A DNA stretch of 64,000 bases from Lytechinus pictus. Its lineage: Eukaryota. Below the pieces are notes generated by a model. The model did not search any database and had not been told where the DNA came from. It saw nothing but the letters and a program-made list of their open reading frames with translations. The DNA lies in contig NC_087245.1 in NCBI RefSeq assembly GCF_037042905.1, positions 21,330,001 through 21,394,000 of the forward strand, written 5' to 3'. The position numbers and the translations under genes were made by a program. Positions 21,235-64,000 of this stretch are shown here, piece after piece (the first letter of the stretch is position 1; each line of letters opens with the position of its first letter).

Positions 21235-24200
21235 CTTCAACAAAAACAACAAATACAGGATGTGAGATATCGGGTCAATGAAACCAATTCAATCAAAGAT
21301 TCATCAATAAAAGAGATTCATGTCATTTGTTAAAATTTAAAAAAAAAAAAAAAATCATAATTAAGAAAAGTAGGTCCTAAACTGGTGGGATTTTACATCA
21401 ATTGCTGTAGGCTTCAATAACCATCTGAAAAAGCCTTCACCGCAATGTCGATGCAATATCGTGGGAGAAATTATACCCAACTTTCTTAATAATGTAGAAA
21501 AGAAAGATCTTGAGATGTTCATTGATTTTTTCAAATCATTATTGAAGAACTTTAACTTCATATTCATTACAACCAATGTGCTTCAAATATGGGAAATCCT
21601 ATCATCATTTAGACCATTGAAAGTAATTGTTTCTTTTTTCTTCAATATATCCTGCATGAATGGACTTAATTTCATAACACTTTATTCAAAATGACAAAAT
21701 ATATAATGAGGAATATAAAATTAATGACACATGTTATAAAATAAAACATGAATAACTGTTTCTTTAATAATTAATTTGTAGTGATTTTCTTTCGCCTATG
21801 TACAATATCCAAATAGGAATAAATTTCAACAATTTTTTGCATTTTTCTTTTCTTCTAACCTGAAATCAAAACAGGGATTTTAATGGGAAAGAATACTTCA
21901 ACCTCACATTCATGAAAAGGATACTGAATCTCAAAATCTTCACAAGAATAAAGACTAGAAATACTTACAGGAGGGCACTGAGCTAGTTTGTCGGATGCTA
22001 CTAGCTGTACATTCATGTTTCTACTCTGAGATTTTGAGCGGGATTTTATTAGCCGTTGTAGTACCTGAAATATAAAAAACCAGACACATACATAATATTT
22101 ATAGGCCTATATAGCATTTATAATGCTCCATTTATCTAGCTGCTTACTCAAAAGAGCAAATTACTTGGCTTTAGCTCCAGCTACTGCTTTCCAGCAATCA
22201 GTGCTTTCAAGGAATATATTCCACCATTCATAATCAGAAGTTTGGAATTTACTTGTCCCCTTGCAATGAAAAAAAAAATATGTATGACCTCTACAACAAT
22301 ATTCTGATACCCCATGTCCCATAGACATTGTACACAATAATATTGTCAAGTTTTGTTGCTGAATTTTGTTCCTGGGCTCTGCTGTGCCATGAATGAATGA
22401 GTGTTAATATTGGCTACAATCTCATACTTATATCCAACAATTTTTATCCCAACAGGAAAAACACTAGCAAAAAAAGTGATAATGGAAAAAAAGTTCATTT
22501 TTTTTGTATTAAAGATATTACATATCTCTTGTTTTTATTAAAACTTGCAAATCATGCCAAATATCCTGATTAACCCCCCCCCCCTAAATTTGAATAATTA
22601 CTGTTATGAATAGACTATAGGCAGCCTGAAAAATTCAATGTTTCACACTATAACAACACTTGCACATTTTAGGCATGGCAAATGTGCATGAATTCAGTTC
22701 ATTCTGAATCGACTAAAATCATATTCAACGTTTGTATTTAAGTTATGTGATTGCTGCTGCTCATGGAAACTAATAATTGATCAAATTTCAATTTTTAAAG
22801 AATAATCAACATCTACATAAAACTAAGCAAAACAGATAATACTTCTGAAACTCTCAGCTTATGATACCACCTGCTACAGTGAAAGGATATAATTTCACAT
22901 AATTGCATACTGAATCAATCTTCTGATTCACAGTCAATGAACTTATAATCTAAATGAGCTCATGTGTTTCATTTGATACGATCTCATTGACCTTTGAAGA
23001 CAGACAGCAATTAAGCTCAGTACAACAATACACTTGAAGCCCAGGCTAACATCCTCATTTTGAAGTACAATGAATATTAAATCAATCAAGGGCTAAAAGG
23101 GCAATAATCTTTCAGGTCAATATTCAGTTTTTATTCAATCACATTTTAATCTTTGAATTGACAATAAGATTGATAGCTTTAACAGTGCATCATTAAAAGA
23201 TTACAATATCTCAAGGAACGTTTTATTCTGTTTTCTAATCCTGCTTTGTTGTTTATCAATTCAGGGTGTAAAAACTGATTTTCCTTCATGGTGCTATAAA
23301 ATGCAAGCTATTAAGCACCTACATGTAACAAATAGAAAGATCAACTTGTATATATTTTTTTCAGAGTTCTTGATCAAGAGTGAAGATAAAATCGGGAAGT
23401 ACTTATGTCAATTTGCACTTAATTTATTTTCCTTACACTTATTTTGCATTATATGTAAATTTCTGTAATTAAAATATGTAAGTTCAATTGTGAATTTATT
23501 TAAAAAATCATAACAAATTAAAGCAAGAGGTAGCGTATCCCCCTCCATAATAATTCATAATGAATCAAATCAGCTCAATTGACATGTGCATGTCTCTTGT
23601 TTTATGTCTGTTTCTGTTTATTACCGTACTGTATTCATTTTATGTTATCCTATGTCATATTGGTTTAGAAGAGGTAACCTGCGCTTATTGTTATGATGGT
23701 TTCCCTTTTAAATAATAAATTATGAAAAAAAAGGTTTTGTCATAAATATGTACCTTTGGAGAAGAGATTTTGACATAGACAATGATAGGGGCAAGAGACG
23801 TCTTAGCAAGTTGACTAGGGTGATTGATGGTGTCGCAATCCAGGATGACAAGCTGCATGCTACGCGCTAACTCAAATATTCTATCTATCTCCGCCTGCAC
23901 TTCAGCTGGAAAAACAAAATAGAAAGAAAAGAATTGAGAAATGGATGACAAAAATGTGAAGAAAATGATTCTGAATGTCATAAATTAAAACATACCTATC
24001 ATGTATTGTATTAGAGATGGATTAAATTTCTGAATATATCAGGAAAAGCAAAATAATTTCTATTTCCTAATTGTAATGCAGTAAATGGTTGACATAAATT
24101 AAAACAAATGTACGATGGTGTATGAAAAGCAGCAATATGCTAATGAAACACCTGCGGCTTATTCCTCATTAAAACTCTCCCACTTTTTTTTCTCCAAAAT

Positions 24201-27200
24201 TAGAACAAAAATGGTTTCCTAATTAATTTCTCTCATCAACACACTGTAATTAATTACAATCAACTGAGCGCCTTTGAGCTAATCCACAAATTGTATACTC
24301 TAGCAATCAAAGCATTCATAATGCAATCCACATGCCATTTAATATAAGCAGCTCTCTATGGAATGGTACTGACATAGGACAATATTACTGAGGGGGAGGA
24401 TCCCTAAATTTTGGATAATATATTACCATTTTAATAATGAGTGAGTTGTGCTTATAGGAAGTTAATTAAATATATTCCAGTATACCATGACACATATGCA
24501 TGGAAATATTAGATTCACAATATAAACAATATGTAAACATGTATACTAAAATATTCCTATATTAAATGGCATATATTTCAAACAGAGTGACCTACATATA
24601 GGTTGAACTGGAAAATTCCACATGTGCCTCCTTTCTTCCATGGACTTTAATATCGCATACATGTACACAGCTTTGGATCTTGATTATACATGTAGTATTA
24701 CACATGCATATCATAGAAAAGCTGACATAATTAATAATCATACATACCGGTACATGTATGCTTAAGGGGCTGGTGAACGGCAACCATAAACATGTAATTA
24801 CTAGATTCAACATGTTGTTTTAATGCAGAAAAGCTTGAATTTTTCACTCTCTTTTGCAAATCACATGATATTCAATCTTATCATATTGAAATAAGTAAAA
24901 AAACAGCATGGCAATTGGTGATATATGTTTGTATCTGTTTCCCAGGCAAATAATTAACAATAATATAAAAGGTAGGAGTTCTCACACAAAAATCCCCTGG
25001 ACATCAAATAAAAATCGAATGAATAGGAACCCTTTTTTCCAAATGTTAAATTACAACTTAACCATTACATAACCGATTTGAAATGGCCTTTTTTCTGACT
25101 ATCTCCACTCCAATATGCAGATATAGAATATATACTGTACATGTATCTTGGAAAATTGAATGAATATGTGCCATCATTTTCAAAATAAAATTACAAAGAT
25201 AAGCTTTCATTATTTTTATTGCTATTCACCAATGTTCTTTTGCATCCCATTCTGAAATGTAAATACATCTTCTTTCGACCTCAAAGAGGACCTCCTATCA
25301 CACTCAACCAGCCAAATATCTCTCTTTTAACAGTATATCAAATTTGACTAATTGGACCTGCTATGGCATTGTGCATTGGTATCCCTCACTGGTTATGGCC
25401 TTGCGTTATTCATTTTACAATTAGAAATAAGAGCCCGTGAAATCAAGAGGCCGTTAAGCGATAATGGAAATAAAATGACGCTCCAAATAGGTGGCGAGTG
25501 AAGGGCATCTTTTCCGTTTATTTTATTTGAAATTGTTAAGAGGGAAAAGGAAAGACACAGGGAGGGGTATCTCTGTTAATTTTGATATGCATTGGGTATG
25601 ATGCCATTTTTTTCTACCCGACTAGCGTTCCCTCATTTATTCATTACATTTTCACACGTTATTCACTCTCCCTGGCAGCACTCAATAAATACTCAACAAA
25701 ATGCATGAACTGTGAAGATCAACCCTGGCATGTACTATGCATACACCTCAATATTTCCCCCAACCGTTTGTCTATCTACTTCCAAAGACATCATAAATCA
25801 TTTTGTACATAATAAATATCAAATTGAAGTGGTATATTTTGAATGCCTTCCTACATAATCATTTGCTTACAGCATGATAACTTTTTGGTTCCGCCCCCAC
25901 TCTAGGGTAGGACCTCATTTTCATTTCTTTTACTTTTCATCTTGACATTTCCTCTAAAAGGGGTCGTTATTCTCTGTCTTTCTTTGAACTACTGATAATT
26001 CTAGTGGGGGCAACACAATCTTGAATATCATCAAAAAATGGCCAAGCTATGATAAATTATTGTTTTCATGCCTTGGTGCACCAATTTGCTTTTCACTGGT
26101 GTTAACCTCCATTGTGACATCATCATGGAAGCAGGAGAAAAGCTGGCACTTTTTTTTCTCTCAAAGGCCTTACCTATACTGGATGAGCGACTATTAGACC
26201 GTTCAATGATCTGCCGACTTTTAGGATTGTTGAGAACTGACCGCTTGGCAAGGGCAATGTCTGCTGTCACACGTGTGATGCAAATCCTTGATGATCAAAG
26301 AAATACAAAAAACAATACATATAAAATAAACAAAATAACATGTGATCAGAGTTCATATGCAACTTTGTCAAATTTCCCTGACCGCTGATGACATTCCATG
26401 ACCTATGCAAAGACTTTCTATGCACCTGTGGTTATCATAATAAAGTTTATCACATAACATAAGACGAAATAATGCTTCAAAAACTGTTCATTGATAGATT
26501 ACATCACACACTGATTACATCATATGGCTAGGTAGTACTCAATGCATATTTTTTATGTGTAACACTGTAATCACACTGACAAAACTAATTCAAAACCAAC
26601 TGATCATATATCATTGAAAATAACATACCAGGTATAAGCTTTTGTCTATCTAAAGTCAGTTTTGCTGGTACGAATGAAGCATCCATGCCTGTTTCATTCC
26701 CTAAATACAAAGCAGGTAGTATGGTATTTCATTTCAGCTATCATATTATCATTTCATGATTTTATTATTTTATCATTGAAGTATTGACAAGGGGCCTGTA
26801 TGTTGCACAAAACTTTTGCCATAATAAAAGAACTCTGGCAAACAAAATTACGCCATTGAGTTTTTCTTTTATACAACAGACCCCAGGAGGTAAGGTGCGT
26901 AGAAAGGGGACATAACTTACCTTCCTTCAAACTTTCTTTTCAAGTAATCAAAGAGTGCTTTCTGCATCATATCAGTGACCTCATAACCCTTGAGGGAGGG
27001 GCCGACCAGTACAACAGGTCGCATTGATGGCACCACATCATATGGAGGAACATTTTCCGTCTGAAAGAAATACCATAGATAAATGTTATAGGATGACGAA
27101 GTGAATTCTAATGAAATAATGCGCTAAAAACAATAATATATATCGCAATGAAAATTATAAATAATCTTTTAACAAAAGTCTGATAAAAATCATAGTGGAC

Positions 27201-29250: not shown

Positions 29251-32200
29251 TCATCACAGTCATCATGACTCAATATCATTTCCAGTATTATTTATTTTTC
29301 ACCACTGTCAATTTCCAGAAAACATTTTTCCTTCCGTATGTGTTTTGCTAAGGTTTTAAAGGCTAATCAAGATTAGCAGAAACAGGTTTGGAACTGACAT
29401 TTATTGAAGCCTTGAACGAAACTTATTTATGCTAATTCATTGCGCAAGAAAAGATATTAGGATGGGAAAATCCCCTTTTAAAGATTTGAATCTTCTTTAA
29501 CCTTTCATATCTTGTGCAAGCTTGACAGCAATGCCTGCATGTTTATTCTGCCGAAGAATCCATCCAAACTAAAAGCAGCTTTTGCCTTCATGAATTATTC
29601 AGTCATGCTTCTAGAGTCTTTAGGTGTCTGACATGAGATTGGAATAGCTGTAAAGTGTGGAAACCTTTACTAAAATGTATTCATGTATGATATGCACACA
29701 AATGATAAAGGTCTTCTGCATAGCTGTGAAGCAAGGTTGTCTTGCTTTTTCCCCCAATTTTTAACAGCTACAGTGAGTCTCATCAATCACCTGCTGATGA
29801 TTTCATTCCGTTTTCATAAAATGCCCAAAAGATTTTTTTTTCCCACGATATCTTCAGTCTTAAAAATGCTAAGCTAATTCCTAAAGGTGAAGTTGAAAAG
29901 GGGAGTTAGATATCTAAAATAATTGACATTTCTAGTTATAGTGGCATAAAAAGAGATCAATGAGCACCTTACCAGAGGCATTGCCATCTTTTCATTCATT
30001 ATATCATTATAGACAAAAAAATGGGAGATTCCGGAGAAAGCCGCTGTGAAAATGTTAAGTGCCTTAGCAGCAGGAATGTCTGAAGATTTGACTAATATAA
30101 AATGTTGCAAGGAATTGTACCCTAATTCTTTTAGCACTAAAGATTCCCAACACTGTAAACCTTTAGCTTTTAATATATTTGACTCTGCTGTTTGAACACA
30201 TAATGTTAAAGTAACCAAATGTGTCATAATGACATCAATTGATAGGTGTTCAACTGACACCATAAATTGAACACTGGAGCAAGATGCTTAAGTAGTGATC
30301 ACACCGCCAGAACAGTAGGGAGAGGGGGTCGCATTTCGACAACGCTCATCACCGCGCACGAAATGGAGAAAAAAAATTGAAAACACGGGCGTTGCCTTAG
30401 CGGTGCACCGCTGAAGCCGGTTGCGAGCGTTGGTTTAGCGGTGACACCTCTATACCTTAACCACCACCAAACCAAACAATAGTTCATCATCGAAATGGAT
30501 CGCTGCCTCAACGCCAGACACCGTTCCAGCAATCCTGTGTACCCTCGTAAAACGCATACAACCGCTCTACCAAAGTTTGTGCAACATTTAATCACCGCAG
30601 CGGTGGTCCAGCTTGCAAGATTTCAGTTGGCCTAGCGGACCCAAGCGTCCAGGAACTTGCGTCTAGCGGTGCCAAACTTTGACTGGGCGTTGTTGGAGTG
30701 GGGGTGACTTTTACGGGAGTGGAAAATTGCCCGCAATATTTTGTGCAGCTCAAATCTTTTGGAGCGGTAGGAGGGACAATCAGCATTGGCCGAGCGTATA
30801 CCGCGTTGCTGTAACGGTGGCCAACTTCTGTTAAACGGTGGTGAACGATAAGCAGCGGTGATGATTTTTTTAACCGCTCCAGCAAAGTTCTGGCGTGTGA
30901 CCACTACTTTAACGATGTCCTCTGGAAACCAGTGGTGTACTTTTAAAATTTCAGTTTTATCAGTGAACTTGGTTTGAAAGAATAGCTCACCTGGAGTTGG
31001 GGGAGTAGAACCTCTTGAATTGGATGACTTTGAGTTAGGTAGTCCGGTCGGGAAGTCGCCGAGGTTAGAGCTGGAACTGAGACCACTGGTGGACCTGCTG
31101 TGACGGGGGGAAGCCAAATGATGGTTGGTCTTACTAGCGTTAAGGGGGAGTGTGGCGGCCTTGTTCTGGAGGAACGACAGGCCCGGGAAGCTGGAAAGGC
31201 TTCCCTTGCTACTGGGGGAGGAAGGGATCGTCATGGTGGTACTGCTACTCAGGGGTAACATAGAGTGTATAATGGGGTATGGTATGACCGGTATCCCGTG
31301 TGATGGGGGGTAAGCATATCACACACACGATGAGTATAATGACCATGTCATGTGAGAATAGGTTAAATGGGGTTAAGGTATGATCAGGTTAATTACATTT
31401 TAGTTAATTTAATAAAAGGTAAAATGATCAGTGTATTTTTCAAAATTAGATTTGGGTAAAATGTAAGGATGGATGAGAGTATAAGTGGGTTAACACACGT
31501 TAAATAAAAGGGGGTTGGTAAATAAGAATGGATGGGTCAAAATTTAGTGTTACCACAGGGTTCCAGCCGTAAAAACAAAACACAGATCGGTAAGGTTCGC
31601 GAGGGCAAGCACAAGGGAAGAAATTATATGTTTAAGTAAGTGGAGATAACACGTCAGAAAAAAAGCAGACAGCAAAGAGAGAAAAGAGAAATAGGAAAAG
31701 AAATGTAGGAAATAGATAGATGATAGCGATATTATTAGAATAAATTAGAATTAAGGATATCAGGAAAAGTTAAGGGATGAGTTGGGGCGTGCAAAAAAAT
31801 AACACGCAAGATTCATTTTCACAGCAATATAAAAATTGACGTTAGTACGAGTTACACGTAAAGTCAATTAAACATGGCAAATGGAAGGAAAAGGCAAAAT
31901 CGTCTCATTAAAAAATAATGATTTCATGAAAGTTTTGTATAAAATGTAAAATAAAAAAAGTTAATTGACAAAATTGATCAAAGGGAAAAGCGTTGATTTT
32001 TATGAAATCGTAAGTTTTGTTAAAAAAAAATAATTTTTAAACATATACGGTAACAGAAAATTTGTGTTCAAACAAAAGGGTTTTGTTATGAAATGATAAT
32101 AGGATGGAAAGTAATTGGAATATTGTTGGTGTATTGAGAGAAATTATGTAAATTATTCCAAGATAGAGGAAGATAGCAAGGAAATTATTAATAGTTGGGA

Positions 32201-35200
32201 GGTAGTGGGTTCATTGGGGTAAAATTTCAAGGTGGATGGGTAGGAGAGGGGGTGTAGACGACCCCAGACAGCCCCAATCAAGTAGCAAATAAGGTCAATC
32301 ATTCCAGAACAAGGCAGTCAAAACATCAAATAATGATCAATTCATTTATGAGTTTGAATATGTCATGAGATCAGTGATAATGATAGGAATTTTCAAAACA
32401 GACAAAGACATAGTGCATACGAGATAATGTTTTCATCAAACAACATCATAATCAAGCAATGTTGATTGTGTCCAGTGACAGAAGATAGTTATTTAAAAAT
32501 ATGAAAATGAAACATGCATTACCAAACACATATCACAATAGAAAGCAATTGCAAAATCATCAAGGCAGCGAAAAACCATAAATCCAATTTTTTCAGTCAA
32601 AACATGCAGATTCAATACAAAGGTTTAGCAGGTGGGGTGAAAACAAAAGAACAAAAAGGGTGTGGGAGAAGAAAGGATTGTAAAAAAATAAATCAGTTAG
32701 TTATCATCAAGATGATAAACCAAATTCTGTCAATATGCCAGAAAACAAAATCTAGAGTAAATCAACAAAATTATAGCACCACACATAAATATGGTTGGTT
32801 TATTTCTTAAAATAAAACCAAATCAAATGTAATTAGGGTTAAAAGCAAATAAAACGAAAGAAATCAACCTATTTCTATAAATCATTAAAAATCTAAGAAA
32901 CGAATGCTTTGAACAATAGGAGTTAGAAAGCAATATACTCCAAAGTGAATCCTTGAAAAAAAAAAAAATTAATAACCAATTTATTGTAACATGCTTGACA
33001 TCAAGTAATCCACTTGGGTAGCAATATCCTCTGTAACCTTTAGTTCATATATATATATATATATATATATACTTTGTGTGTGTGTGGGGGGGGGGGGCTT
33101 TTACATATTAAATATCTTTAAAAAGTAAAAAACAATGTTTAACCAATAGTTTTAACTGGAAACTGTCCAGGAATGCCTCATTCGAATGAACTGTGTATAC
33201 ATGTATTGGCAACATAAATGTAAGTGCATGTATTGTGGTCAAATGGGATTCCTAGGGCTGTGAAAAAATCAGTCACGCTTCAGGAGGAAGGAGGAATTTG
33301 AAATGGGCAAATTCAATAATAAACATACATTGAATAAAATTTTTACAGAAAAATAAGCCCTGTTTATTCCCCCAAGATTACTTCCATTCAAATCTGAATC
33401 GGCACTTCTACATGTAATCATGGCAGAAAACAGCATCACCCCCCCCCCCCATTTCTATTAAGGCTAAAATGAAATGAACATGATAGGAGACTATTTGTCA
33501 AGTCTGCATTGATTGTCAAGTCAAATAAAAGATCTTCCACTTTTTCATGGCCATGTATGTTGCCTACACATTTACCTTACATACATTAAAACTAAACTGA
33601 TCATTTAATTTTGTAATTTATATCAATCACATATTGACTGTATGAAATTGATCAAATGCATGATGTGAAGAGGTATACAAATAAATGTTCTTATATCATG
33701 TGAAGGTAAATAATTTCAAATGTCACAGTGTACAGATGCATGCTGTGTTTTTCAAGATGATGATGATGATGACAATAATTTAAAGTAGTGTGGAAATACT
33801 AATAATCTAGCTATAAAACAAATAATCATTATTTGTTTAAAAATCTAACTTTAAGGAACAATGTTTAAAAAAGATTTGGTAGAAAAGGGATAACCCCTTA
33901 ATGGAAAATACAATCAAATCTGTTGGAAAAACAAAACCCTGAAAATTTTCACATTTCAAAATCATTAATGCAGAGGAATATGACATGAACTTTTAGCCAT
34001 AATGGTCAGGGAATTCATTGAAAAAACCTGTATAGTGTGCGATTCCTATGAATGTAAAACAAATATAAAAACAATGTGGATGTATTCTAGGTATCCATAC
34101 TGAAGATATGAGCTCGGTAAAAACCTTCTTGAATGAATGAGAGTAGTATGGAAAACCCATCAGGACAATGCATAAATTAGAATTGGTATAAATATATCCC
34201 ATCCAATATTTATACTCCCACTCAAGCTAAAAGCATTTCTCAGAGAACGGACACTCCCGCTGCGCCTTTTAAGATCCGAACAGTCCCATGCACTCATTAA
34301 TATGTCTGTATTCCATAAACGGTGCACTGTATGACGTTTGCAGTGCAATGCACAGAAACAATCGTGCATAATGCAATAATATTGCATTGAGCATCTGTGT
34401 CCAGTGTCCGTAGCTTATGAAATGAATATAAAGCTTACTCTCAGCTTGAAGAGGAAGAAAGTATAATGGACATCAGACCTTTTATTTGGTTTCCAGCAAG
34501 CAATGAGGCACAGACAACTAGTGAACTCATTGATTCTATAAAATCATAAGCTTCTGAACCCTATTGAGTTTCATCAAAGTGATTCAGTTGAATACTTTGA
34601 TTCATAAATATGGTATAGTGACCATCTTCCATGAATTCAATCAAATTCTTGTTACTTAAAAGCAGAGGTATAATCAAGAGTCTATATCAATCCTTATACT
34701 TTATTTCGATTTTTACAAATGAACTGCGGCATTCTAAACTATTTGATTAAATCCATAGGGTTATGAAGCTATAAGTGTTCAATCATAGAGTAAATTTTAA
34801 TGAATTTTAGTCTTATAATTGGAGAATTCATTTCCATGACAATGATTCAATATGTTTCAGTTATTAACATCACCTGGTATTTTACTTAATAACTTTGTGT
34901 TTTAGATAGCAAATCTGGAAAAATATGCAGTAAACAATCAAACTATCACTTTGCATCATGCCATTTATATGCAAAGAAAAGGGTAAGTGCATGCAGATTC
35001 TGGAATCAAGAAAAACAGAACAATAGTTTACATCTAAAGAATTACCCGTATGCAAACAATTGTTTTTTTAATTATATTTTTTTACTTCCAACTTAAAGAA
35101 AGCGTGGGGGAAATACAATGGAAATAAGAAACTGGAAGAGGGAAACAGACTTTCACCAACCTGTTTAACTTGCAATTTGAATTTGGAAAAGCAGGTCGAA

Positions 35201-38200
35201 TGGGGAATACATATTTCAAATGACTTTTGAAAGGTACATTTGGTAACTTAAAGATACAGCAAACTGGAATCAAAATAAACAAAAACATATGACAACTGGG
35301 AGCATTTGGCACCATTTTTACTTTTCTCTTATTTACTTGCAACCACCACAGCGCTGAAAAGAGACCATAGTATTTCATAAGGGTTGGGGCAAGGGGGAGG
35401 GGGGGGGGGTGACTCCAAAGGGGCAATTTGTCACATTCACACGCCATAGGAACCAATGAAGCAAATTTCCCTTTTCTCCATTAAAATTTGCAGTTTTTAC
35501 TCTATTTCAAAGTCAGAAAGAGTCAAATTACTGATGAGGAAAAAGTCCTACCTCCTCATGTAATCTGTATGCAAATATTCCCTTGTGGTACAAAAAATAG
35601 GGAAAAAAGTGGAAATTCTTGTTAGGGAATATCATGGTTGGGAATGATAATGGCTGTTTCAATGTACCTACATATCTCTTTCATCAAAACCCTAAAACTG
35701 ACAGAGTAATATCAGCAGAAAAATCCTAATAGCTTTTCATTTGGATATTTATACAATTCCTCTATCTGTCCTTTCAGATATTTGTATATGGTTGGTAGCT
35801 ATTATGCATGAGTTCATCAAATAATTTCATTTTTTGAAAACCCTAACGAAAAAAGATGTGGACCAAAATATACTTCAGACAATACAGAAACACATTTCAC
35901 AATGCACAGAGTAAAAGGGACAATGACATCACAGAAAAAAATTATACAGATAAACAAACACAAATAGACAAACACCTACATAAATATAAATATAATATAT
36001 TGATAATGAAACATGTATTTTGTGTATAGCTTAATAAATATAGGACACAAAAAGGAATAATTTTGATACAAATCGCTTTTTCCTCTATTGAATTATAATT
36101 ATGGTAACTATGGTAGCAGGGCTCAGCAGCCAATCAGAATCAAAGTTTCCATGGTAGTTAACAAAATTGCAAATTTACAATGATTATAAGCCTTTATGGA
36201 ATGGGCCCCAGGTGAATATCCCCATTTAAAAATAGGGTGGGTCTTACAGAGAATATTAGTATTGCTGATTAAAATTGAACGTTGCTATGGAAACCAATTA
36301 ATGCCAGAATAAGCTATCTGTCCTTATCATTGCAAATCAAGACAATTGCTTTTTCAGAGTTGATTAAAAATACCCCAAACCTACATTTACTGCAAGAGCA
36401 GTACGTTAGTGAAAACATCAAGAACCTGGCATTAACTACATGTCATCTGTCAGGGCTATTGTTACCCCCCCCCCCCCACTTTTGAATATAAGACAAACTT
36501 ATGAGCTAATTGCAGTCCCATCCCTCAATACATATATCATACCTACAATAACCTATAATTTCTTTCAAGTATTTTTTTTTACAAGAAAATATTTGTCTCC
36601 AATTCACTTCACTAGTAGAATCAGACAGTGAAAGCCAATAGTGTGAGACCATAGGAACTGTCAATTTCATAAAAATTGTAACTTCCTTTATGTTTTTTTT
36701 TCAATCGGGATGATAGTAAAGAACATAGATAAAATCATTGTGATCATGAACGCTACTCACTTTCCAAGTCTATTTCTTGTCCCTGAAGCCTGTAACCTCA
36801 TGTTCTCTAGCTTGGCTGGACTAGGAATGAAGCCTATATCGGCTCCTTCTTTTACTAATTTACCAATCCACCAGTCATTGTTGTATTTCTATGTAGTAAG
36901 AAAAGACAATCAAGCATATAAATATATTTGTCCTCAGGGTTTTGTCCTCAGAACAACTCTTATTCAACTTCAAAACTACAATTCATATTTTAATATTTGG
37001 CTTGGAGCTGTACGTTTCTTTCGCTCCATGAGATAATTCACCCTTTGAATAGTTATACATGTATTTTAATACTTTAAAGGACCTAAATGAAAACTAGAAT
37101 GATTATAATTAATATCATCACTCTGAGGAAATAAAGAATGCAGGCAGTCCAGCAGAAGATATTCAACACAAAACAATTTTCAAACATTCACATTCCATAT
37201 TTGTTTGTTTTAAAAATGTTATATCAATTTGATGAAACAAAATTATGTTCTTTACGGGACTTATTGTTAATAATAGTTCATTGCAAATAATAATTTCATT
37301 TCTAAAAATAAAAATAAAGTAAAATAGATTATACTTAAAGGATAATCCAACCTACCTCTTTTATATGTAGGAAGTCTTTTACTTCAAAAGATATTGCGCA
37401 TCCTTGCACAGGGGAGTCGTCATCTATAGAACCGTCATAATTTACATTTGTTCGTACCGCAAAGGCAACTGGCTTTGTCTAAAAGAAAGAAAGACACATA
37501 TACATAAATAACAAAATTCACTATGCACAATTACTAATTACTGATGTTACATGAATATAGGCATGTTACCCAGTTTCCCTTAATTTGAAGAAAAAAAATA
37601 ATCATAGAACATGAACCTTAAATGAATTGGATTTTTTGTTTAATTCCTTCCGTACATATTTCAAAGAATAACATTTAAAAAACTTGGAGAAAAGAGTTCT
37701 TAGAAATAAGAAGAAACATTCAATTATGCAAGACATTTGGTATCATATATGATACACTAAAGCACAGTTGCATCTCAGCTCTCATGAACAAATTGGACAT
37801 AATGTCTATTTGGGATAACTTGGTTTATAAAGCTGAGCCTTATGCATGATTTGAAACTACAGCATACTCTTGTTAACTCTTTTGCACATATTTCTTTCCT
37901 CAAAATTTTCCCTCCAAGCCATAAAAATTAAGACAAAGATAATGCACAAAATGCATTAAATTTTCATTCATGCATACGTCACAAATGTCAAGAATTGAAT
38001 AGAAAATTAACCTTAATCTTAATCCTTAAAATTAGAAAAACATTAAAAGAAGCAATAAAGTTATTAAGATCATAAGATCAATACTGGCAATTGCTCCTAC
38101 TGCTGGATATATGTTTTTATGTGTCAGAGCTATATACAGATTCAAACATGTTACATGTAGGTAACCTACCCTAGCTTTTTCTAATTGTGCTAATGCTTGT

Positions 38201-38289
38201 CTTTCGGTCTCTCTTCTTAAAGCTTCTCTCTCCTCATCCAATGACAGGTCTGAATCAGAGGGCCGGCCGTAGTTTGAATCCTCAGAACC
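20392..38289 (-). CDS. CACNB: Voltage-dependent calcium channel beta subunit (CaVbeta; SH3-HOOK-GK), 5'-partial, 10 exons, 642 aa from the first identified exon
   Basis: Exons 38170-38289, 37356-37478, 36761-36888, 30991-31094, 28265-28374, 26921-27060, 26174-26286, 23754-23905, 21969-22064 and 20392-21234 splice in frame with GT-AG boundaries. Hallmark motifs: [39 protein letters not shown]...[64 protein letters not shown]. Confidence 0.96.
21969..22064 (-). CDS. CACNB: CACNB exon (GK)
   Basis: [32 protein letters not shown]; tttcag acceptor, gtaagt donor. Confidence 0.96.
23754..23905 (-). CDS. CACNB: CACNB exon (GK)
   Basis: [51 protein letters not shown]. Confidence 0.96.
26174..26286 (-). 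CDS. CACNB: CACNB exon (GK)
   Basis: [38 protein letters not shown]; aag acceptor, gtaagg donor. Confidence 0.95.
26921..27060 (-). CDS. CACNB: CACNB exon (last SH3 strand / GK start)
   Basis: [46 protein letters not shown]; gtaagt donor. Confidence 0.97.
28265..28374 (-). CDS. CACNB: CACNB HOOK exon 2
   Basis: [37 protein letters not shown], ending in the conserved KEKRxPFFKK; phases 1/0 fit the neighbours. Confidence 0.93.
29225..29267. repeat. (ATC)n microsatellite
   Basis: Visible tcatcatcatc array. Confidence 0.9.
30291..30908. mobile_element. PIF/Harbinger-like MITE
   Basis: TTA direct duplication (30288-30290, 30909-30911); TIRs AGTAGTGATCACACCGCCAGAAC / GTTCTGGCGTGTGACCACTACT; GC-rich interior with many ACCGC/GCGGT motifs. 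Confidence 0.8.
30991..31094 (-). CDS. CACNB: CACNB HOOK exon (short form; longer in-frame forms possible)
   Basis: [34 protein letters not shown], resembling the SSSSxLG...STPP HOOK segment of CaVbeta. Acceptor ccgtcacagcag (phase 2), donor gtgagc (phase 1). The 5' boundary is ambiguous. Confidence 0.85.
31251..32726 (-). promoter_or_regulatory. Extended AG-exclusion zone with distal branch point and polypyrimidine tract, upstream of the CACNB HOOK exon
   Basis: Only one + strand CT (= sense AG, in a GAG context, 31904-31905) in 1476 nt. Sense AACTAAC at 32696-32702 is followed by a pyrimidine tract at 32641-32690. Confidence 0.7.
33047..33098. repeat. (AT)n-(TG)n-poly-G compound simple repeat
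   Basis: Visible runs. Confidence 0.85.
36761..36888 (-). CDS. CACNB: CACNB exon (SH3 into HOOK)
   Basis: [42 protein letters not shown]; gtgagt donor, phase 2. Confidence 0.96.
37356..37478 (-). CDS. CACNB: CACNB exon (SH3, first part)
   Basis: [41 protein letters not shown]; canonical splice sites. Confidence 0.96.
38170..38289 (-). CDS. CACNB: CACNB exon (N-terminal helix)
   Basis: [40 protein letters not shown]; tttcag acceptor, gtaggt donor, phase 0/0. Confidence 0.95.
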
Positions 38290-57132: not shown

Positions 57133-60100
57133 TACTTCAATCAATGCCAATTAAAATGTACTGATCTATGTATTTATAAAATTAAAGTGGATGAAGTATA
57201 CATTACTGCATCAAAAGTCTATGATCATGTTTAGGAGAGGGGGTACATCATCATTTTTACAGCAACGACTGCCACTACTGATTTAATTCGAGGTCATGGA
57301 TTGGTTGAGAAGGATTGGCCTCTGACAATAACCATGACAACCGCCAGAGAATGATTATTTATCAGTGCTGAAAATTTTCATGAAATATTCCACAGATCAG
57401 CTAACAAATTAATACACTAAAACTGCTAAACAAGTAAAATAAAATGAACCAAATATAATTTTAAAAGTCCATCAAATGAACCATCCTTAAAATAACCCCA
57501 TCACCCCCCCCCCCCCAATCAAAAATAAAGACTCTTTGAAAAAAATTAAATCTATATTTTCATGTGAATTTGTAATCTTTCAGAAGGAATTTTATTATAT
57601 CAATTGGTTAAAATTGTTAATTAGATTAAAGCTTTCACGCTGTAAGCCCCTAAATTTTAATAACACCAAAATTAGCGGATGCTCCTGCTACCCACGCACA
57701 CCTACATGTACCCATCCCTTCCTCTTTCAAGTTCCATCTCCATAAGCTGTGTATACATGTCTGAAACCCCATGAGTCAGATTTTCTTTTCCTATCCTAAC
57801 ACCCATGTCACCATAGCAGACACACTCATTATGAATGACGCCATATACCTGACACATACACACAAATGAACTCTTATAATCTCTCCTCACTGTATATATA
57901 TATATATAGTAATTACTCATCTAACACATCTTTTTTTTTGATACACCATTCAGTGCCATAAAATTTTAATAATTCCAACGGCATAAAGTTCCATGAATTC
58001 CAAAAGTTTCCTGCAGTAATCATGACCCATTCCGATTCGCATATTTTTTGTTGTTTAGCGCAAAATTTGGGATGACTGGCTTATCTCAAATTTCTTTGGT
58101 CTGTTAAAGCAATCAGTTCTTGTCATTTTTCCACCCCATTACTCTTTCACCTGGTTTTTAGCTTCGTACGCGAGCTGTCACAAAGCAGACTTTAAACGGA
58201 AATCATCCATGAAGGTAATTACAATCCTTGCTTGGAACAAGTAAGAGTATTCACACACTGGTCTAAGACATTTTCTTCTGCAAAACATTCAGAAAACACC
58301 CCTTGGAACTTTGAGAGAATAAAATAAGAGGAACCAGCATTTTATAGAATCGCCTTATACAGTCGGAAATCTTTTGTATGCTTTGGATAAAAAAATTCTT
58401 AATTTGTAATCTTCATTGAATGCACTAACCACTACAAACAGCATCTGGGTCTGGGATGATATATAGTGCACCTCTAAAATGACAACTACATTGTAGATAG
58501 AAAGTGCTAGATTTTTTGCATCTGCATCACTCCCAATTTTACTAATGAAAGTATTTTTTGTGATCATACATATATATTCCAAACTACTTTTCAAATGTTT
58601 CAGAAATATGTGTGATTAGACACACAATTCACCATCATAAACCTATCCCTAAAATAGTGTGAACAAAAACATAATTCTACAATCAATACTTATTTCTTGT
58701 GTAAATGCTTGGTGTTTACTTTTTGATGATCTTGATTCATGTGTAAATATTACCCTTAAACATATCATGTATAATCTGCAGATGGTTTTTCAAAGAACAA
58801 GCTCAATCTTTTCACATATTATAAATACAAAAAGCCCAAGAATTAGCAGTCAATAAAACAAAACAAAGCACTTGAGTGGTTTCTTTTCTCAAAATTAATT
58901 TAAAGGGTTATTCCGATCTATTGTTTTCATCATACATATGAATGACCTGGTTTTATTGCAAGTTCATGTTCAACCAGCTTTCGTAATGCAAATCAAATAC
59001 AAAAAGCAGCCATTGCAAAGATATCAGCAAAACAATCACAAGCACACACCATGAATACATACTCCCCTTTGTTGATTACAGCCTCATAACTCTAGGCTAT
59101 GGGTGTATCTCCAACAGAAGTGTCGTAATCATTGATTTTCTTTCCTTCATTGGCATAGCTCGTTATTGCCGAAGCAATATTATTGTTTATGTGTAGGAGT
59201 AACTGCACTTACGATTGTGCAATTAATCACGGTATATTCATCATCAACAGAAATGAGGCAGGGGTAAAATTCCATACAGAATTACTCAAATTAGAATAGT
59301 CTGTTGTAAAATGACGGCTTTTAAGCTTAAAATGGTTATTTCAAAAGTAAAACTTCATTAAACCTAAAGCTGATTGATTATTGGGTATTGTAGATTCACA
59401 TACATGTACTTCTACTATGTAACAGCAACAAATTATCTTTTTCTTTTCCTTTTTGCAGACTGCGCTGGATATCAAAATATATGGGGGAGGATTAAGCTTG
59501 ACAATCCCTTCATTACAATACATGAAATTCAAATTCATCGCCTTTCTCATTCCGAATGAAAATTACTGACGATATTTAGTTTCTCCATTCTAACCAATAA
59601 AAGTTTACAAAGATAACTTGTTACAATATTTAGTGCTGAATGCAAAATATCATTGTTTGCGAATAAAAAAGAGAATATGCAAGTTATTTGTCTTGTAATA
59701 TGTGCTGTTGTAAAATTAATGGAAGGGGAAAAAAAGATAGATTCAGGGCAGTCAAACTCCAACTCAAGTGATTTCTTAAACATAACATTCAGTGTCAGTG
59801 ATGTTTAAAAGAAATAAATACAGTATTCAGTTTAAGCAGAACAATGCATTATTGAATTTGTTTTAAGTATAGAAGAACATACCTCGTCCGTCGACATGTG
59901 GTAATCGGGATCAAACTGACTGACAGATGAATACGATCCACGGTCTCGCTTTGCCCATGTCATTGTGATGTACACAACCAGAATATTGTTTTGGAATGTC
60001 TCCTTATTCCAGCATAGATGTATCACTTTCCATATCTACTAGATTAGATGAATAATCCAGAACCTTACAGAGTCAAACTGATCCAAACGGCTTTAAAGCC

Positions 60101-62765
60101 TAAAGTATAGTTTTTGAAGAGCTTCCAGAAAACTCTGAGGAATCAGTGTTCAGAGTTATTTTCCAGCGAGTTCACAGGTGTCTGCAATTTGTGCATGTAT
60201 GCAAAGAGTTCTCTGGGCACTTTACTCAGAATGATGAACATGAAATAGTGCAGTTTGCAAAATTAATGGAACTTAAGTTCTGGATTGGTGTGATTACGTG
60301 CATCATTTACATGTAAGCCACAGTCTTTGTTTATGAGAAGATATACATATCAACTCAAATGCAAAACCTAATGATTTGCTTCAGTGGAAGATTAACAAAG
60401 ACATCAACAAGCAGCAGAGTAAAATTATAATAATTGTTTCTTTTTTTCAAAATCAATCCCTATTAAAAGAAATATATATATATCATGAGGCACCAAAAAA
60501 TGTTTTTTTTCTCAAAATTAAAAAATACACGCAAATTTCTTTAATAAAAAGAAACAAACATAAATTGCATAGGCAAAAACTTTGGAAGTAAATTCAAAAT
60601 GAATATCTATATACAATTGTAAAAGAAATCTGTTGCTTGCTTTTCTATAGTGTATATAACTTAAATGCATTCAATTGCACTTCTTTATCTCTCGATAAGA
60701 TGCACTTGTGTCATGAAAGCTTCTTTGGAGGATGTGCAATATAATTTACTAATGCCTTTTTTTCTTGAAAAGTATCTACTGGAATATGAGGCCTTCTACA
60801 TGTATATTCACTTCTTAGGTTCAGGTTAGTTCACTGCTGTCTGGGAGATGACATGTCACAGGTAGTGTGGTCAATATCCGTCATATGTTATTTCACTTTG
60901 AAATAATTAATCAAGCTGCAGACATGTCACGAGAGAGAGATGTTCTGCAAAATATGTTCATGTAAGGTAACCTCCTAAATGTAATCTCCATAAAATGAAA
61001 GTCTTTTCCACTAACGCTGTAGCACATTTCAAAATAAAAATGTAATATCTTCTGGAATGGTACAGTCAGAATAAAAGAGAAAAGAATGTTGCGCTTGAGT
61101 TCACCTTGTTGACAAGATCTCAAAAATGCCGGCAACGGTTACAAGGAATTTGTTGGAGGATGATGATGATAAATTACTAATGTCACAAGCAGTAGGTGTA
61201 CACCTGGGATTAGGAAATTATGTGTCTTTGAGCTGAAGACCCTGTTGCAAGACTGAGCCCACAATCGCATCAAATTATCTGTAGAAGATGTGAATGTATT
61301 CTTCATGCCAGAGCTGTTCGTAGGCAGTGTCACTCCATTCATTATACATGCACATGTCAGCTAGCACCAGTAGGCTTCCAATTCCCCTTGGGTTTTCCAA
61401 TGCGCAGGTATCGTCCTCTTGCGAGTGATTCGTGAGGAACCACGACGGGGTACTCCTATCTCATATGCCATGCCCATGAGGCACACTTGCCCCCCAATCT
61501 ACCACCTTTCCCCCGAAGAGGCGGTTCCCTCGTTCTGATACAGAATCTTGTGGACAGAAATTCCAAGCCAAAAACAACTTTCACACAGTGGAATTGGATA
61601 TCATTCCAAAAAGTGGCATCAGCAATATCTTCTTTTCTATGAATTTAATCATGTCAACAGCTTTCTCCCGATGATGGCACATAGCAATGGAGATCCAATG
61701 TGTGCACCAAGTTATCATCGATGCCCCATGTATGAGACAGACAGTATGCGTTCGAGTGTACGAGAGAGAGGGAGAGCATGAGAGGAACCGGCAGAAAATG
61801 AGAAAACGTGGGAGAAAGGGATAGAGAATTGAAAGGGTGGTGCATGAGTGTGTGTGTGTGTGTATTGTGTGTGTGTTGAATGCATACAGAATTACTGAGC
61901 ATCACATAGTGGAGGTAATGAGGAATTGCAGCGGCTGATAACGTGCATACTAAGTGGGTTTGTGGAGATGAATTGAGGCCTGTCTCACTGAGGCAGTACC
62001 ATTTCATACAATGGGGGTGTTGCAAAGAACAATGTGATTACATTTTATGCAAACAAAATGTTCTGGCTATATGCATCTCTAAATCTGAATATCTGATTTT
62101 GAAAGCTATTATATCCTGCATCAATTTTAAGAGACAATTAAATATACTTGAAAAAGAAATTTTCAAATATCTATATATTTCATCCTTGAAAGAATTGGGA
62201 CTTTAAATGAAATCATTAGGGCTTTAACATGCCTTTCAAACCACTTCAAATGATAATTAGTCAATAAGCTATTTTCGTGTAATTATAGAAATCAGACACC
62301 ATGACTTAATAAATGTGATATTTCAGAGATATATATTATTACAGATTTAAGTTTTGCAATTTAGTAGGTTCAGCATATTTCTGCATTTCAACTGTTGCAT
62401 GGCTTATGACAACTCTTTGTTTCAGAGTAGATAAAAGGTATTCAGAAAGAAGGTTTAGGCCCTATACATCTACACTCCATGTTTTAAGCAGATAGAAAAA
62501 TTATGTACACATACTTGTATTATTTTAGCAATTTTCTATGTAAGCGACTAGTGCTCAACCTAGAATTACTGTTTTCATCAGACATAAGAACTTGATCATG
62601 TTCAAAACATGACTTTATATCATAGCTCAGATGCATTTAAGGATTTTTTTTTCCAAATAAGACAATTTTTCCCCTTTTGAATCAGTTGATTTTCAGTGAC
62701 AAAAAACAGAAGACAAGATGGTTGTCACTTTGGGGTGGGGCCTTGTACCTTTTTGACAAAATACC

Positions 62766-63302
62766 ATCATCATCACATAATCATCATCATCATCATCATC
62801 ATCACATAATCATCATCATCATCATCATCATCATCACCATCACCATCACCATCATCATCACCACCATCATAATCATCATCATCACATAATCATCATCATC
62901 ATCATCATCATCACATAATCATCATCATCACATAATCATCATCACCATCATCATCACCACCATCATAATTTCCTTCAGCAAGAAACTCATCCACATTGTG
63001 CTGCACTCAACCCAGGTGAGGTGAATGGGTACCCGGTAGGAAGAAATTCCTTGAATGCTTGAGCGCCTAGGCAGCTCAGCTAAAGCCGGGGTAATAATAA
63101 TAGCAGGGCCCGCTGGTAGAACAGTTTTTGAAACTGAAGTGGCTACCCTGGGTAAATATACCTATATTATTATTATTATTATTATTATAATCATCATCAT
63201 CACATAATCATCATCACCATCATCACCATCACCATCATCATCGCCATCATCATCATCACCATCATCACCATCATCATCATCATCACCAACATCATCGTCG
63301 TC
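62766..63302. repeat. (ATC)n/(ACC)n microsatellite interrupted by a SINE
   Basis: Trinucleotide arrays at 62766-62967 and 63189-63302. Confidence 0.95.
62969..63188 (+). mobile_element. 5'-truncated copy of the same SINE with an (ATT)n tail
   Basis: tttccttcagcaaga...cattgtgctgcactcaacccaggtgagg...gcagggccc...aactgaagtggctacc is the reverse complement of ~5553-5727. Confidence 0.8.
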
Positions 63303-64000
63303 AACATTTTGTGAATACTTATTTCTTAATGGGTGAATCATTGGTAGCGTGCACCATAAACGCTCCATTTTCGTGTTAGGGAACATGCTGTATTATGCTT
63401 GTAGACATACGCCCAATGATTAGGTGTCACCCTTTTATGTGCCCCCCTAGTCTGCCTTCTCTATGAAATTAACCTTGCTATACACAGCAGATTCATGTAT
63501 GTGTTTACAAACTATCCTTCATGTTAATTTAATGGCCAATGAATTGGATCAAATTACATACCGAGAGTACCGGCAGAAAACGAAAGACCTCTAAACCGAA
63601 TGGGTACAGAAAAATGAAGGTGGACAGTTGGGGGGGGGGGCTGATACATCATAAACACACTGTTCTTCGATCTTGTTCATTGTGAGAGATTTAACTTTCT
63701 ACTAACTGTAGTAAGTATTTACACCATAAGAGGACAAGTGCAAAAGTCAGGATTTTGTGAAAAGAGTTCTGATCAAATTCTGATCAATCCATATATATTG
63801 AGATTCCTTAAAATAATATGGTAAAATGCTGACTCTTACAAGGCTCACAAAATAAGTCACCGAACATGGAACCTTGTATACTCTTCCAATTTCCACCTTT
63901 TCTCTTTTTCTTCTCTCAAGCTTTTAAATTACTCTTATCAAATTTTAGTTAGTAGTAATCATACGTATGTACATTTCCACTTGTAAGCGGATGAAGGAAC

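Follow-up and report, generated by a model that had tools for sequence, protein, structure and literature searches.

Verified classic distances between a branch point and its AG stop at about 350-400 nt, and in vitro substrates cannot be made long enough; it is a long-standing question how far from the branch the spliceosome can seek its 3´ AG. The closest described systems are vertebrate exons preceded by AG-exclusion zones (AGEZs). In the portion of Gooding et al. (2006, PMC1431707) available to us, distant branch points lie at the 5´ ends of such zones and go together with alternatively spliced exons. That portion lists PTBP1 exon 11 (AGEZ of 381 nt, verified branch point at -351), nPTB (438 nt, predicted branch point at -389) and GABBR1 exon 23 (288 nt, branch point at -275), places HTR4 exons 3-5 and alpha-tropomyosin exon 3 in the same vertebrate class, and reports that alternative 3´ splice sites are not in excess among large AGEZs. 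A related arrangement, dBP/megaPPT, is described for OGDH intron 4a in the accessible part of Kralovicova et al. (2021, PMC7969005). There the AGEZ measures about 280 nt, the branch points adjoin the upstream 5´ splice site and thereby enforce mutual exclusion, and a GAG "AGEZ spoiler", with no YAG, is tolerated in one species; the authors link the arrangement to Ca2+-regulated gene products.

Here we describe a much longer AG-poor stretch in Lytechinus pictus, found in a 64-kb piece of genomic DNA (the window). By homology, the minus strand here carries an echinoderm CaV-beta (CACNB-type) gene, with the stretch inside its HOOK region; the initial annotation of this DNA had likewise placed it in the HOOK part of a CaV-beta gene. 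PF12052 (VGCC_beta4Aa_N) matches at 38170-38289 with 74 bits, PF00625 matches at 26926-27027 and 23751-23906 cover the guanylate-kinase-like part, and eleven exons share 79-100% identity with Diadema CaV-beta proteins. The order on one strand is VGCC_beta4Aa_N, SH3, HOOK region and guanylate-kinase-like part. In vertebrates, the HOOK region affects channel inactivation. The relevant features are as follows.

36761..36888, minus strand: exon preceding the intron, carrying the end of SH3; its donor is GTGAGT at 36760-36755
36760-31095 or 36760-31242, minus strand: 5.5-kb intron with the zone at its 3´ end
32727..32728, minus strand: first AG upstream of the zone and its 5´ border, with normal AG density above
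31250..32726, minus strand: AG-exclusion zone, a 1,477-nt intron segment whose transcribed strand has one AG
31904..31905, minus strand: lone AG of the zone in GAG context (aatgAGacg), splitting the zone into 823 and 656 nt; a short U-run precedes it
31242..31249, minus strand: long-form tandem acceptors GAG-TAG-CAG, spaced 3 nt in frame, with which AG reappears downstream of the zone
31095..31241, minus strand: 147-nt 5´ extension found only in the long form of the HOOK exon, 49 codons, 12 AGs
31095..31099, minus strand: short-form tandem acceptor cAGcAG, exon start 31094 (..RLG-K-STSG) or 31097 (..RLG-NR-STSG)
30991..31094, minus strand: common part of the HOOK exon, with donor GT at 30990-30989

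The zone contains a single + strand CT (AG on the minus strand of the gene), against 39.8 expected from its mononucleotide content (observed/expected 0.03; Poisson P(<=1) = 2e-16 on the basis of its own composition). This CT, at 31904-31905, is the only one between 31248 and 32727. Elsewhere in this intron, 4,000 nt contain 181 minus-strand AGs, or 3-13 per 200-nt bin, at which rate approximately 67 would be expected in 1,477 nt; along these bins the density changes sharply at both borders of the zone. Other dinucleotides on the minus strand are not depleted (AA 116 versus 96 expected, GA 51 versus 40, GG 20 versus 16.5), therefore the deficit is specific to AG. The initial annotation, which had called for AG counts in windows across the intron, had reported one CT in place of dozens, a lone AG in GAG context, and AACTAAC with a pyrimidine tract at the upstream border, and was accurate on these three points.

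Within the window, the next largest CT gap on the + strand is 230 nt and the largest AG gap 296 nt. When 200 kb of flank is added and both strands are considered (264 kb), the two halves of the zone are still the longest CT-free runs. AG- or CT-free runs of similar length are represented there only by two, of 640 and 436 nt, both in low-complexity T/C-rich DNA (4-mer complexity 0.30-0.35, compared with 0.66-0.67 in the zone). The zone is single-copy in the 811-Mb assembly, and searches for dispersed or internal copies and for tandem repeats found none. Its + strand consists of 614 A, 377 T, 330 G and 156 C, i.e. its minus strand is 42% T, 22% C, 26% A and 11% (10.6%) G, with 64% pyrimidines. 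Of all possible substitutions in the zone, 11-12% would create an AG, and neutral decay would bring in about 6 AGs for every 3.5% of divergence. Because the deficit is also far beyond chance, it must be maintained by selection, which the initial annotation had likewise proposed.

Gooding et al. (2006) define an AG-exclusion zone as AG-free from beyond -12 to at least 100-150 nt upstream, in excess of what composition predicts. The urchin zone shows this AG-free length, the specificity for AG, and a branch-site match with a pyrimidine tract near its 5´ end. The AG-free stretch at the long-form acceptor measures 662 nt in the strict sense and 1,485 nt if the GAG is ignored; at the gene's 10 remaining acceptors it measures 18-142 nt. 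The values of the long-form acceptor are 1.5-3.4 times the largest one cited in the available portion of PMC1431707. By its sequence features, this kilobase-scale AG-poor stretch is a very long variant of the known arrangement, with distant branching the likely counterpart; at 1.5 kb, it is about three to four times as long as classic vertebrate zones, and its branching is predicted from sequence.

Further likenesses to the vertebrate exons are the position of the AG-free stretch upstream of a 3´ splice site and the consensus-like branch site with adjacent pyrimidine tract at the 5´ end; weak conventional signals beside the acceptor (here a weak local tract, but one yUnAy at -69) and alternative splicing (here presumed) would be two more. 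The differences are the echinoderm host, branch sites that are read from sequence, the lack of UCUU enrichment, and the type of event, which is an alternative 3´ splice site here and a cassette or mutually exclusive exon there. With OGDH, as far as the accessible part of that report goes, the locus shares distant (here candidate) branch points followed by a long, single-stranded (here predicted) pyrimidine-rich tract without YAG, and a GAG spoiler. However, the first urchin candidate is located about 4 kb from the upstream donor, and the steric mechanism of the OGDH type is therefore inapplicable. Both urchin 3´ splice sites also resemble NAGNAG/tandem acceptors (for example PMC3250501), since they are in-frame AG clusters 3 nt apart (GAG-TAG-CAG and CAG-CAG). 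The tandem AGs are nevertheless a side feature and do not explain the AG-free zone.

The 3´ border of the zone coincides exactly with the first acceptor cluster of the long form. The CAG of this cluster (exon start 31241) gives a long form of the same length as Diadema antillarum X1, and the extension encodes a segment ending in SPRHS that is conserved in echinoderm long isoforms. RNA evidence consists of assembled contigs, not raw reads. Spliced contigs join 36761 to 31094, the short form, in 3/3 runs that have one (X1, X2, X10); among the 15 joints listed of 22, those across this intron are all short-form and none is long-form, in assemblies from which rare variants are dropped. Long-acceptor use in L. 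pictus is thus presumed from homology alone. The initial annotation held that an apparent ultra-distant branch point controls the HOOK exon. The long-form acceptor of that exon does end the zone, but control of the exon as a whole needs correction, as the contigs use the short-form acceptor 147 nt and 12 AGs further downstream. A cassette exon was considered and rejected: the HOOK exon can begin at either of two 3´ splice sites, of which the upstream one closes the zone. Accordingly placed, the zone would serve an alternative 3´ splice site, namely the upstream long-form acceptor.

Several motifs within the intron might act as branch sites or support them.

32696..32702, minus strand: branch-site candidate 1, AACTAAC, 6/7 to TACTAAC, putative branch A 32697
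32634..32693, minus strand: pyrimidine tract 1, directly after candidate 1, 83% pyrimidines over 60 nt, ranking second in the 5.5-kb intron
31841..31847, minus strand: branch-site candidate 2, perfect TACTAAC, putative branch A 31842
31657..31716, minus strand: pyrimidine tract 2, 88% pyrimidines over 60 nt, the best of the intron
31139..31145, minus strand: CCTTAAC, likely short-form branch site by sequence match only, with its A (31140) 45 nt upstream of the short acceptor
32608-32603 and 32518-32513, minus strand: two UGCAUG hexamers, 90-185 nt downstream of candidate 1

The putative branch A of candidate 1 lies 31 nt inside the 5´ border, i.e. 31 nt from the first upstream AG, and 1,448 nt from the AG at 31249. 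Of the 8 heptamers that match TACTAAC in at least 6/7 positions, only AACTAAC is followed by 50 nt with at least 80% pyrimidines. Candidate 2 follows the lone GAG at a distance of 57-63 nt, and 593 nt separate it from the AG at 31249. Both of the intron's top two 60-nt pyrimidine windows fall inside the zone. The local tract of the long-form acceptor is poor (U 0.30, longest U run 2), and the only yUnAy within 90 nt is GCTTACC, with its A at 31311, at -69. The initial annotation had proposed one branch point about 1450 nt away. A candidate does exist at 1,448 nt, but the better match TACTAAC at 593 nt, in the company of the strongest tract, had been missed; a single branch point at approximately 1,450 nt is therefore not the sole reading.

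We suggest that the 1.48-kb zone is a real AG-exclusion zone under purifying selection that serves the long-form acceptor by deep branching, and we assign this reading a probability of about 0.58. U2 snRNP would branch at sites deep in the intron, provided by two modules of branch site and pyrimidine tract, AACTAAC (32697) and TACTAAC (31842), and possibly by weaker sites. After the first step, the spliceosome would scan downstream to the nearest usable AG, passing over the weak GAG at 31905 and ending at the GAG/TAG/CAG cluster (31249-31242), which would result in the long isoform with 49 extra codons. Any new YAG in the zone would present a premature 3´ splice site and would be purged. In the case of the short isoform, the conventional CCTTAAC (A at 31140) inside the extension would be used with the acceptor at 31094 or 31097. 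The choice of branch site would then decide the isoform. Use of the distant branch sites, the scanning step and any regulation are what the arrangement of signals suggests.

A complex 1.5-kb AG-poor sequence between a branch-site match and an acceptor represents a natural experiment at a defined locus. If branching more than 1 kb upstream is true, it extends the accepted reach of second-step AG selection several fold. In such introns, a variant that creates one AG, at a great distance from the exon, could be deleterious, and tools that look for branch points only in the last 100 nt would miss such signals, which concerns gene annotation. More tentatively, and without regarding it as probable yet, we propose that sea-urchin spliceosomes branch more than 1 kb upstream and find the correct AG, and that kilobase zones are recurrent and selected for alternative 3´ splice sites or exons.

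Selection on splicing might also operate with the nearer branch sites only (TACTAAC at -593 or GCTTACC at -69) serving the long acceptor, with no productive 1.45-kb search. The upstream 823 nt would then be AG-free since any AG close to the strong module of AACTAAC and its tract would act as a decoy or cryptic 3´ splice site. The downstream sub-zone contains both the perfect TACTAAC and the best pyrimidine tract, each of the two units divided by the lone GAG opens with a branch-site match, and distal branch points are used productively less often as distance grows, according to the part of Taggart et al. (PMC5378181) at hand. A decoy effect should nevertheless fade with distance, yet the whole 823 nt are AG-free where composition predicts about 22 AGs, and branching at 32697 under the first-AG rule predicts the same constraint as deep branching does. 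Moreover, this reading still calls for a branch about 590 nt away; if the -69 site alone were sufficient, nothing would explain the 656-nt sub-zone. We regard this alternative as unlikely.

A constraint unrelated to splice sites would be, for example, a single-stranded, pyrimidine-rich protein-binding platform disturbed by AG, or a + strand feature that avoids CT. Folding predictions make the zone far less structured than the remaining intron (folding energy -13.7 versus -24.6 kcal/mol per 150 nt, Mann-Whitney p = 1.6e-6, equal G+C). This counts in favour of deep branching as well, and together with the high pyrimidine content across it and the two UGCAUG hexamers would suit a platform. MegaPPTs are indeed described as binding platforms in the excerpt of PMC7969005. 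On the other hand, AG alone is lost while AA, GA and GG are normal, and the borders coincide with the acceptor cluster and the branch site. To our knowledge, no protein-binding model predicts the loss of one dinucleotide with those three at normal level. Comparison of the zone with Rfam gave no RNA family, and its ORFs, + strand ones included, contained no Pfam domain. Such a constraint is very unlikely to account for the zone.

We give little credence to the lone GAG at 31905 being a weak real acceptor, of an unannotated exon or an unproductive splice, that would divide the region into two zones of 792 nt (site 1 to GAG) and 593 nt (site 2 to exon). Each sub-zone does start with a branch-site match and a pyrimidine tract, and the U-run before the GAG would be fitting, but no joint at 31904 is found among the 15 listed of 22. 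GTRAG was counted 0 times on the minus strand of the zone, no good donor was seen downstream of the GAG by eye (unscored), no protein homology was found around it, and GAG is the poorest acceptor context in the accessible part of PMC7969005. Chance, base composition, mutational bias or repeat-derived sequence without selection has next to no chance of being right: skewed composition and long AG-free runs in nearby low-complexity DNA (640 and 436 nt) speak for it, yet P is ~2e-16 given that very composition, the zone is complex, single-copy and non-repetitive, the effect is confined to one strand and one dinucleotide and breaks off sharply at splicing signals, and neutral decay is fast.

UGCAUG, the RBFOX motif, is seen twice in the zone, a number reached in 7/500 mononucleotide shuffles. 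As a point against deep branching, the preferred reading, the PTB-type UCUU is not enriched in the zone (13 versus 23.5 in shuffles), and the classic picture of PTB repression is thus unsupported.

At 19/19 non-echinoderm homologous loci, there is no AG gap of at least 150 nt next to the exon, and the matches there are without the long-form segment too. Among 13 named echinoderm gene models, 8 are long and 5 short; the 8 long models come from 7 echinoderm species other than L. pictus. In echinoderm CaV-beta, long and short HOOK isoforms are probably a regulated pair, and it is this pair that the zone singles out. Finally, the K and NR variants in echinoderm gene models fit the use of both short-form AGs.

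The AG-exclusion zone (AGEZ; window 31250-32726, minus strand) forms the 3´-terminal part of an intron of 5.5 kb in a sea-urchin CaV-beta gene. The initial annotation had assigned it to the HOOK region of such a gene, and Pfam domains, tblastn exons and exon matches all agree with this placement. When two Diadema proteins were used in tblastn, eleven exons were recovered at 79-100% identity. A protein search with the exon below the zone gave 15 matches at E <= 0.01 among 853 candidates, namely 13 named echinoderm CaV-beta gene models and 2 unnamed unspliced ORFs. The landmarks of the gene are as follows.

38170-38289, minus strand: Pfam match to PF12052 (VGCC_beta4Aa_N)
36761, minus strand: end of the exon upstream of the zone (..RNRLG + AA), donor GTGAGT
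30991, minus strand: end of the HOOK exon, downstream of the zone
26926-27027 and 23751-23906, minus strand: Pfam matches to PF00625 (guanylate kinase)

An alternative first coding exon, MTWAKRDRGSYSSVSQFDPDYHMSTDE, lies at 59883-59963 (minus strand), about 21.6 kb upstream of the exon for the N-terminal domain; it matches the Diadema setosum X2 model with 100% identity.

The AG-free stretch reported in the initial annotation is real. CT on the plus strand occurs at 31248, next at 31904 and then at 32727, which leaves one minus-strand AG (a lone GAG, 31904-31905) in 1,477 nt by dinucleotide count, against 39.8 predicted from the base content of the zone itself (Poisson P(<=1) = 2e-16). The same intron outside the zone contains 181 AGs in 4,000 nt, or 3-13 per 200-nt bin, a rate equal to about 67 per zone length; 200-nt bins wholly within the zone have none, except for the bin with the lone GAG. 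The deficit is specific for AG, as AA, GA and GG on the minus strand are found at or above their expected number. On the RNA strand the zone is 64% pyrimidine and 10.6% G. Run lengths were ranked against 264 kb of the chromosome (window and flank, both strands), where the two halves of the zone, 823 nt upstream and 656 nt downstream of the lone GAG, are the longest CT-free runs. The sole near-rivals are AG-/CT-free runs of 640 nt (L009:4612-5252) and 436 nt (L006:4420-4856) in pieces flanking the window, both of low-complexity T/C-rich sequence; remaining AG-/CT-free runs in complex sequence reach at most 263 nt. Separately, runs of 208-261 nt at window 62640-63390 are due to long triplet-type simple repeats, which read as poly-His, poly-Ile or poly-Asp according to frame.

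The AG-free state has to be maintained. Of the 4,431 possible point changes in the zone, 531 would create an AG (11-12%, with transition:transversion weights of 1 to 4). Organism B, a related organism among the sequencing runs compared, differs at 20 positions of one 716-nt piece of the zone and at 26 of a second, 682-nt piece, i.e. by about 3-4%. Since 5.5-6.2 new AGs are expected in the zone per 3.5% divergence (P(<=1) = 0.015-0.027), an old neutral relic is ruled out. Only one copy of the zone is present in the 811-Mb assembly. Neither tandem repeats within it nor dispersed copies within 262 kb were found, and self-similarity gave no significant sign of an internally duplicated branch-site module (best E = 0.004 over 57 nt). 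Origin by editing or deamination (AG to GG) was rejected, as minus-strand GG is not enriched.

We suggest that branching would take place deep in the intron and that the first suitable downstream AG would then be taken as 3´ splice site. Any YAG between the most upstream used branch site and the true acceptor would be harmful. This is the best-supported reading, with steps deduced from genomic sequence, and it would explain the dinucleotide specificity, the strand, both borders of the zone and the weak local signals. Further, the lone GAG could survive because GAG is the poorest acceptor context. Candidate signals are listed below.

32697 (branch A), minus strand: AACTAAC, 31 nt below the border AG (32728-32727), directly followed by a 60-nt tract with 83% pyrimidine
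31842 (branch A), minus strand: perfect TACTAAC, 57-63 nt below the lone GAG, followed by the tract 31716-31657
31249-31242, minus strand: long-form acceptor cluster ctgAG-tAG-cAG, the first AGs after the zone
-45 from the short-form acceptor, minus strand: CCTTAAC, sequence match
31095-31099, minus strand: short-form acceptor cacAG-cAG, exon start 31097 or 31094

With the branch A fixed, eight intronic heptamers agree with TACTAAC at six or more of the seven positions. The zone contains three of these; from each of the other five an AG is reached within 12-48 nt. The tract at 31716-31657 (minus strand) is the best of the intron, with 88% pyrimidine. Next to the long-form acceptor the tract is poor, with a U content of 0.30 and no U run longer than 2, and one yUnAy is present in the nearest 90 nt, at -69. 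At the other ten acceptors of the gene, the AG-free stretches measure 18-142 nt.

Only the nearer branch sites might be productive, upstream AGs being avoided as decoys. We consider this unlikely, because the upstream 823 nt are free of AG where about 22 are expected, which implies use of AACTAAC or a nearby site besides TACTAAC at -593. A constraint other than splicing might also keep the zone free of AG, which appears improbable; a search of the zone against Rfam returned no match and its ORFs contained no Pfam domain. That the lone GAG is itself a real, weak acceptor is slightly harder still to accept. Chance origin of a run with one AG for 39.8 expected is hardly credible. A branch point 0.6-1.45 kb away is the most likely, if unproven, cause of the zone. 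The proposal of one ultra-distant branch point in the initial annotation holds in part: a selected AGEZ does precede the HOOK exon, with AACTAAC and its tract at the border, but TACTAAC at -593 is a second candidate and the zone ends at the long-form acceptor, while spliced contigs use 31094.

As for RNA structure, predicted local folding energy is -13.7 kcal/mol per 150 nt in the zone versus -24.6 in the rest of the intron at equal G+C (p = 1.6e-6), and by this prediction the zone RNA should be largely single-stranded. Long-range pairing that would join branch site and acceptor was rejected; the search gave just four short inverted repeats, 13-21 nt long and 80-88% complementary, none of which links the zone ends. 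A PTB platform was rejected as well, with UCUU being rarer than in shuffled sequences (13 vs 23.5). UGU-type motifs are more common (30 vs 13.9, a number reached in 0 of 500 shuffles), which probably reflects the TG excess. UGCAUG, which we take to be an RBFOX-type motif, occurs twice (32603-32608 and 32513-32518, minus strand), 90-185 nt downstream of AACTAAC; two copies were reached in 7 of 500 shuffles.

By comparison with echinoderm gene models, the HOOK exon has two alternative 3´ splice sites, both in-frame tandem AG clusters: GAG-TAG-CAG (31242-31249) for a long form with 49 extra codons and CAG-CAG (31095-31099) for a short form. The short-form acceptor is located 147 nt beyond the long-form site, behind 12 more AGs. 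With the CAG of the long-form cluster (exon start 31241), the length equals that of the Diadema X1 model. The CAG-CAG pair accounts for the ..RLG-K-STSG and ..RLG-NR-STSG variants of echinoderm models. The insert of the long form (35-50 residues after ..RLG/..KLM, conserved in part) is present in 8 of the 13 named models; in the other 5, K/NR comes straight after the upstream exon. Three species have both forms.

Long-form models: Diadema antillarum X1, Apostichopus X3, Asterias X3, Acanthaster X2 and X3, Antedon X2, Anneissia X2, Amphiura X2
Short-form models: Diadema setosum X2, D. antillarum X6, Acanthaster X4, Antedon X7, eukprot record XP_011661602.1

The short form would branch below the long-form acceptor cluster, probably at CCTTAAC, and the isoform would depend on the choice of branch site.

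Four sequencing runs were compared as contigs, their kind (RNA or DNA) being guessed. The joints 36761-to-31094 and 30991-to-28374 are present in all three runs with spliced contigs (X1, X2 and X10; two organism labels), which use the K form (31094), and both are absent from the DNA-like run X5. No long-form joint is among the 15 of 22 joints listed, and contigs can attest a variant but not its lack; for Lytechinus pictus, the long form is supported by homology and peptide conservation. In two runs presumed to be RNA, unspliced contigs cover parts of the zone at 32161-32876 (X10, depth 9.6) and 31079-31532 (X2, depth 4.7), compared with depths of 78 (X10) and 53 (X2) for spliced mRNA contigs. 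AACTAAC is spanned by one of them. Their source may equally be pre-mRNA, a separate transcript or carried-over DNA, and the presumed RNA runs leave some parts of the intron uncovered. Over two intronic stretches, 30258-30900 and 35844-36431, the summed contig depth is very high in each of the four runs, with a maximum of about 48,000 in X5, and loose ends and rearranged joints are numerous. Both stretches are repeats of high copy number and probably mobile elements; the former starts below the HOOK exon donor, at a distance of about 90 nt.

Taken as a whole, the zone is a real, selected AGEZ of exceptional length before the long-form acceptor of the HOOK exon, and is a variant of an arrangement already known. 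The excerpted text of Gooding et al. 2006 (PMC1431707) gives AG-free zones of at least 150 nt in 165 of 67,334 human exons, branch points verified at -351 (PTB exon 11, zone 381) and -275 (GABBR1 exon 23), and a quoted 438 nt for nPTB. Passages of Taggart et al. 2017 (PMC5378181) show conservation of distal branch points and suggest that these are a holding state whose productivity falls with distance. Kralovicova et al. 2021 (PMC7969005), as excerpted, describe a dBP/megaPPT arrangement, about 280 nt long, that offers a single-stranded platform for binding, and in OGDH a GAG spoiler is tolerated, with no YAG (PMC7969005). As far as these excerpts go, the zone described here shares with the vertebrate AGEZ family the long AG-free stretch, the AG-specific depletion and a consensus-like branch site with adjoining pyrimidine tract near the 5´ end. 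Its length exceeds the largest one quoted in them by a factor of 1.5 (strict) to 3.4 (with the GAG ignored). Unlike the zones they describe, it precedes an alternative 3´ splice site and shows no UCUU enrichment. Literature searches gave no echinoderm or kilobase-size AGEZ; those directed at sea urchins returned mammalian work and one paper that names sea urchin once, and supplementary tables of the papers cited might list longer zones.

As an outgroup control only, 19 metagenome-derived loci with a homologous exon were used, judged non-echinoderm by their exon sequences. None of the 19 has an AG-free run of at least 150 nt beside that exon, and no long-form segment was seen in their matches; the 10 loci inspected show normal AG density (18-49 AGs in the upstream <=700 nt). 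Within this sample, zone and long form go together, the latter being seen only in the echinoderm sequences. In P0013, an unnamed ORF from a 6.6-kb contig with a brittle-star-like exon, the open frame extends for a further 92 codons above the start of the long-form exon, with 0 K/Q/R and one E. This would fit an intron of a distant echinoderm whose end is rich in pyrimidine and poor in AG, and may be regarded as an indirect hint.
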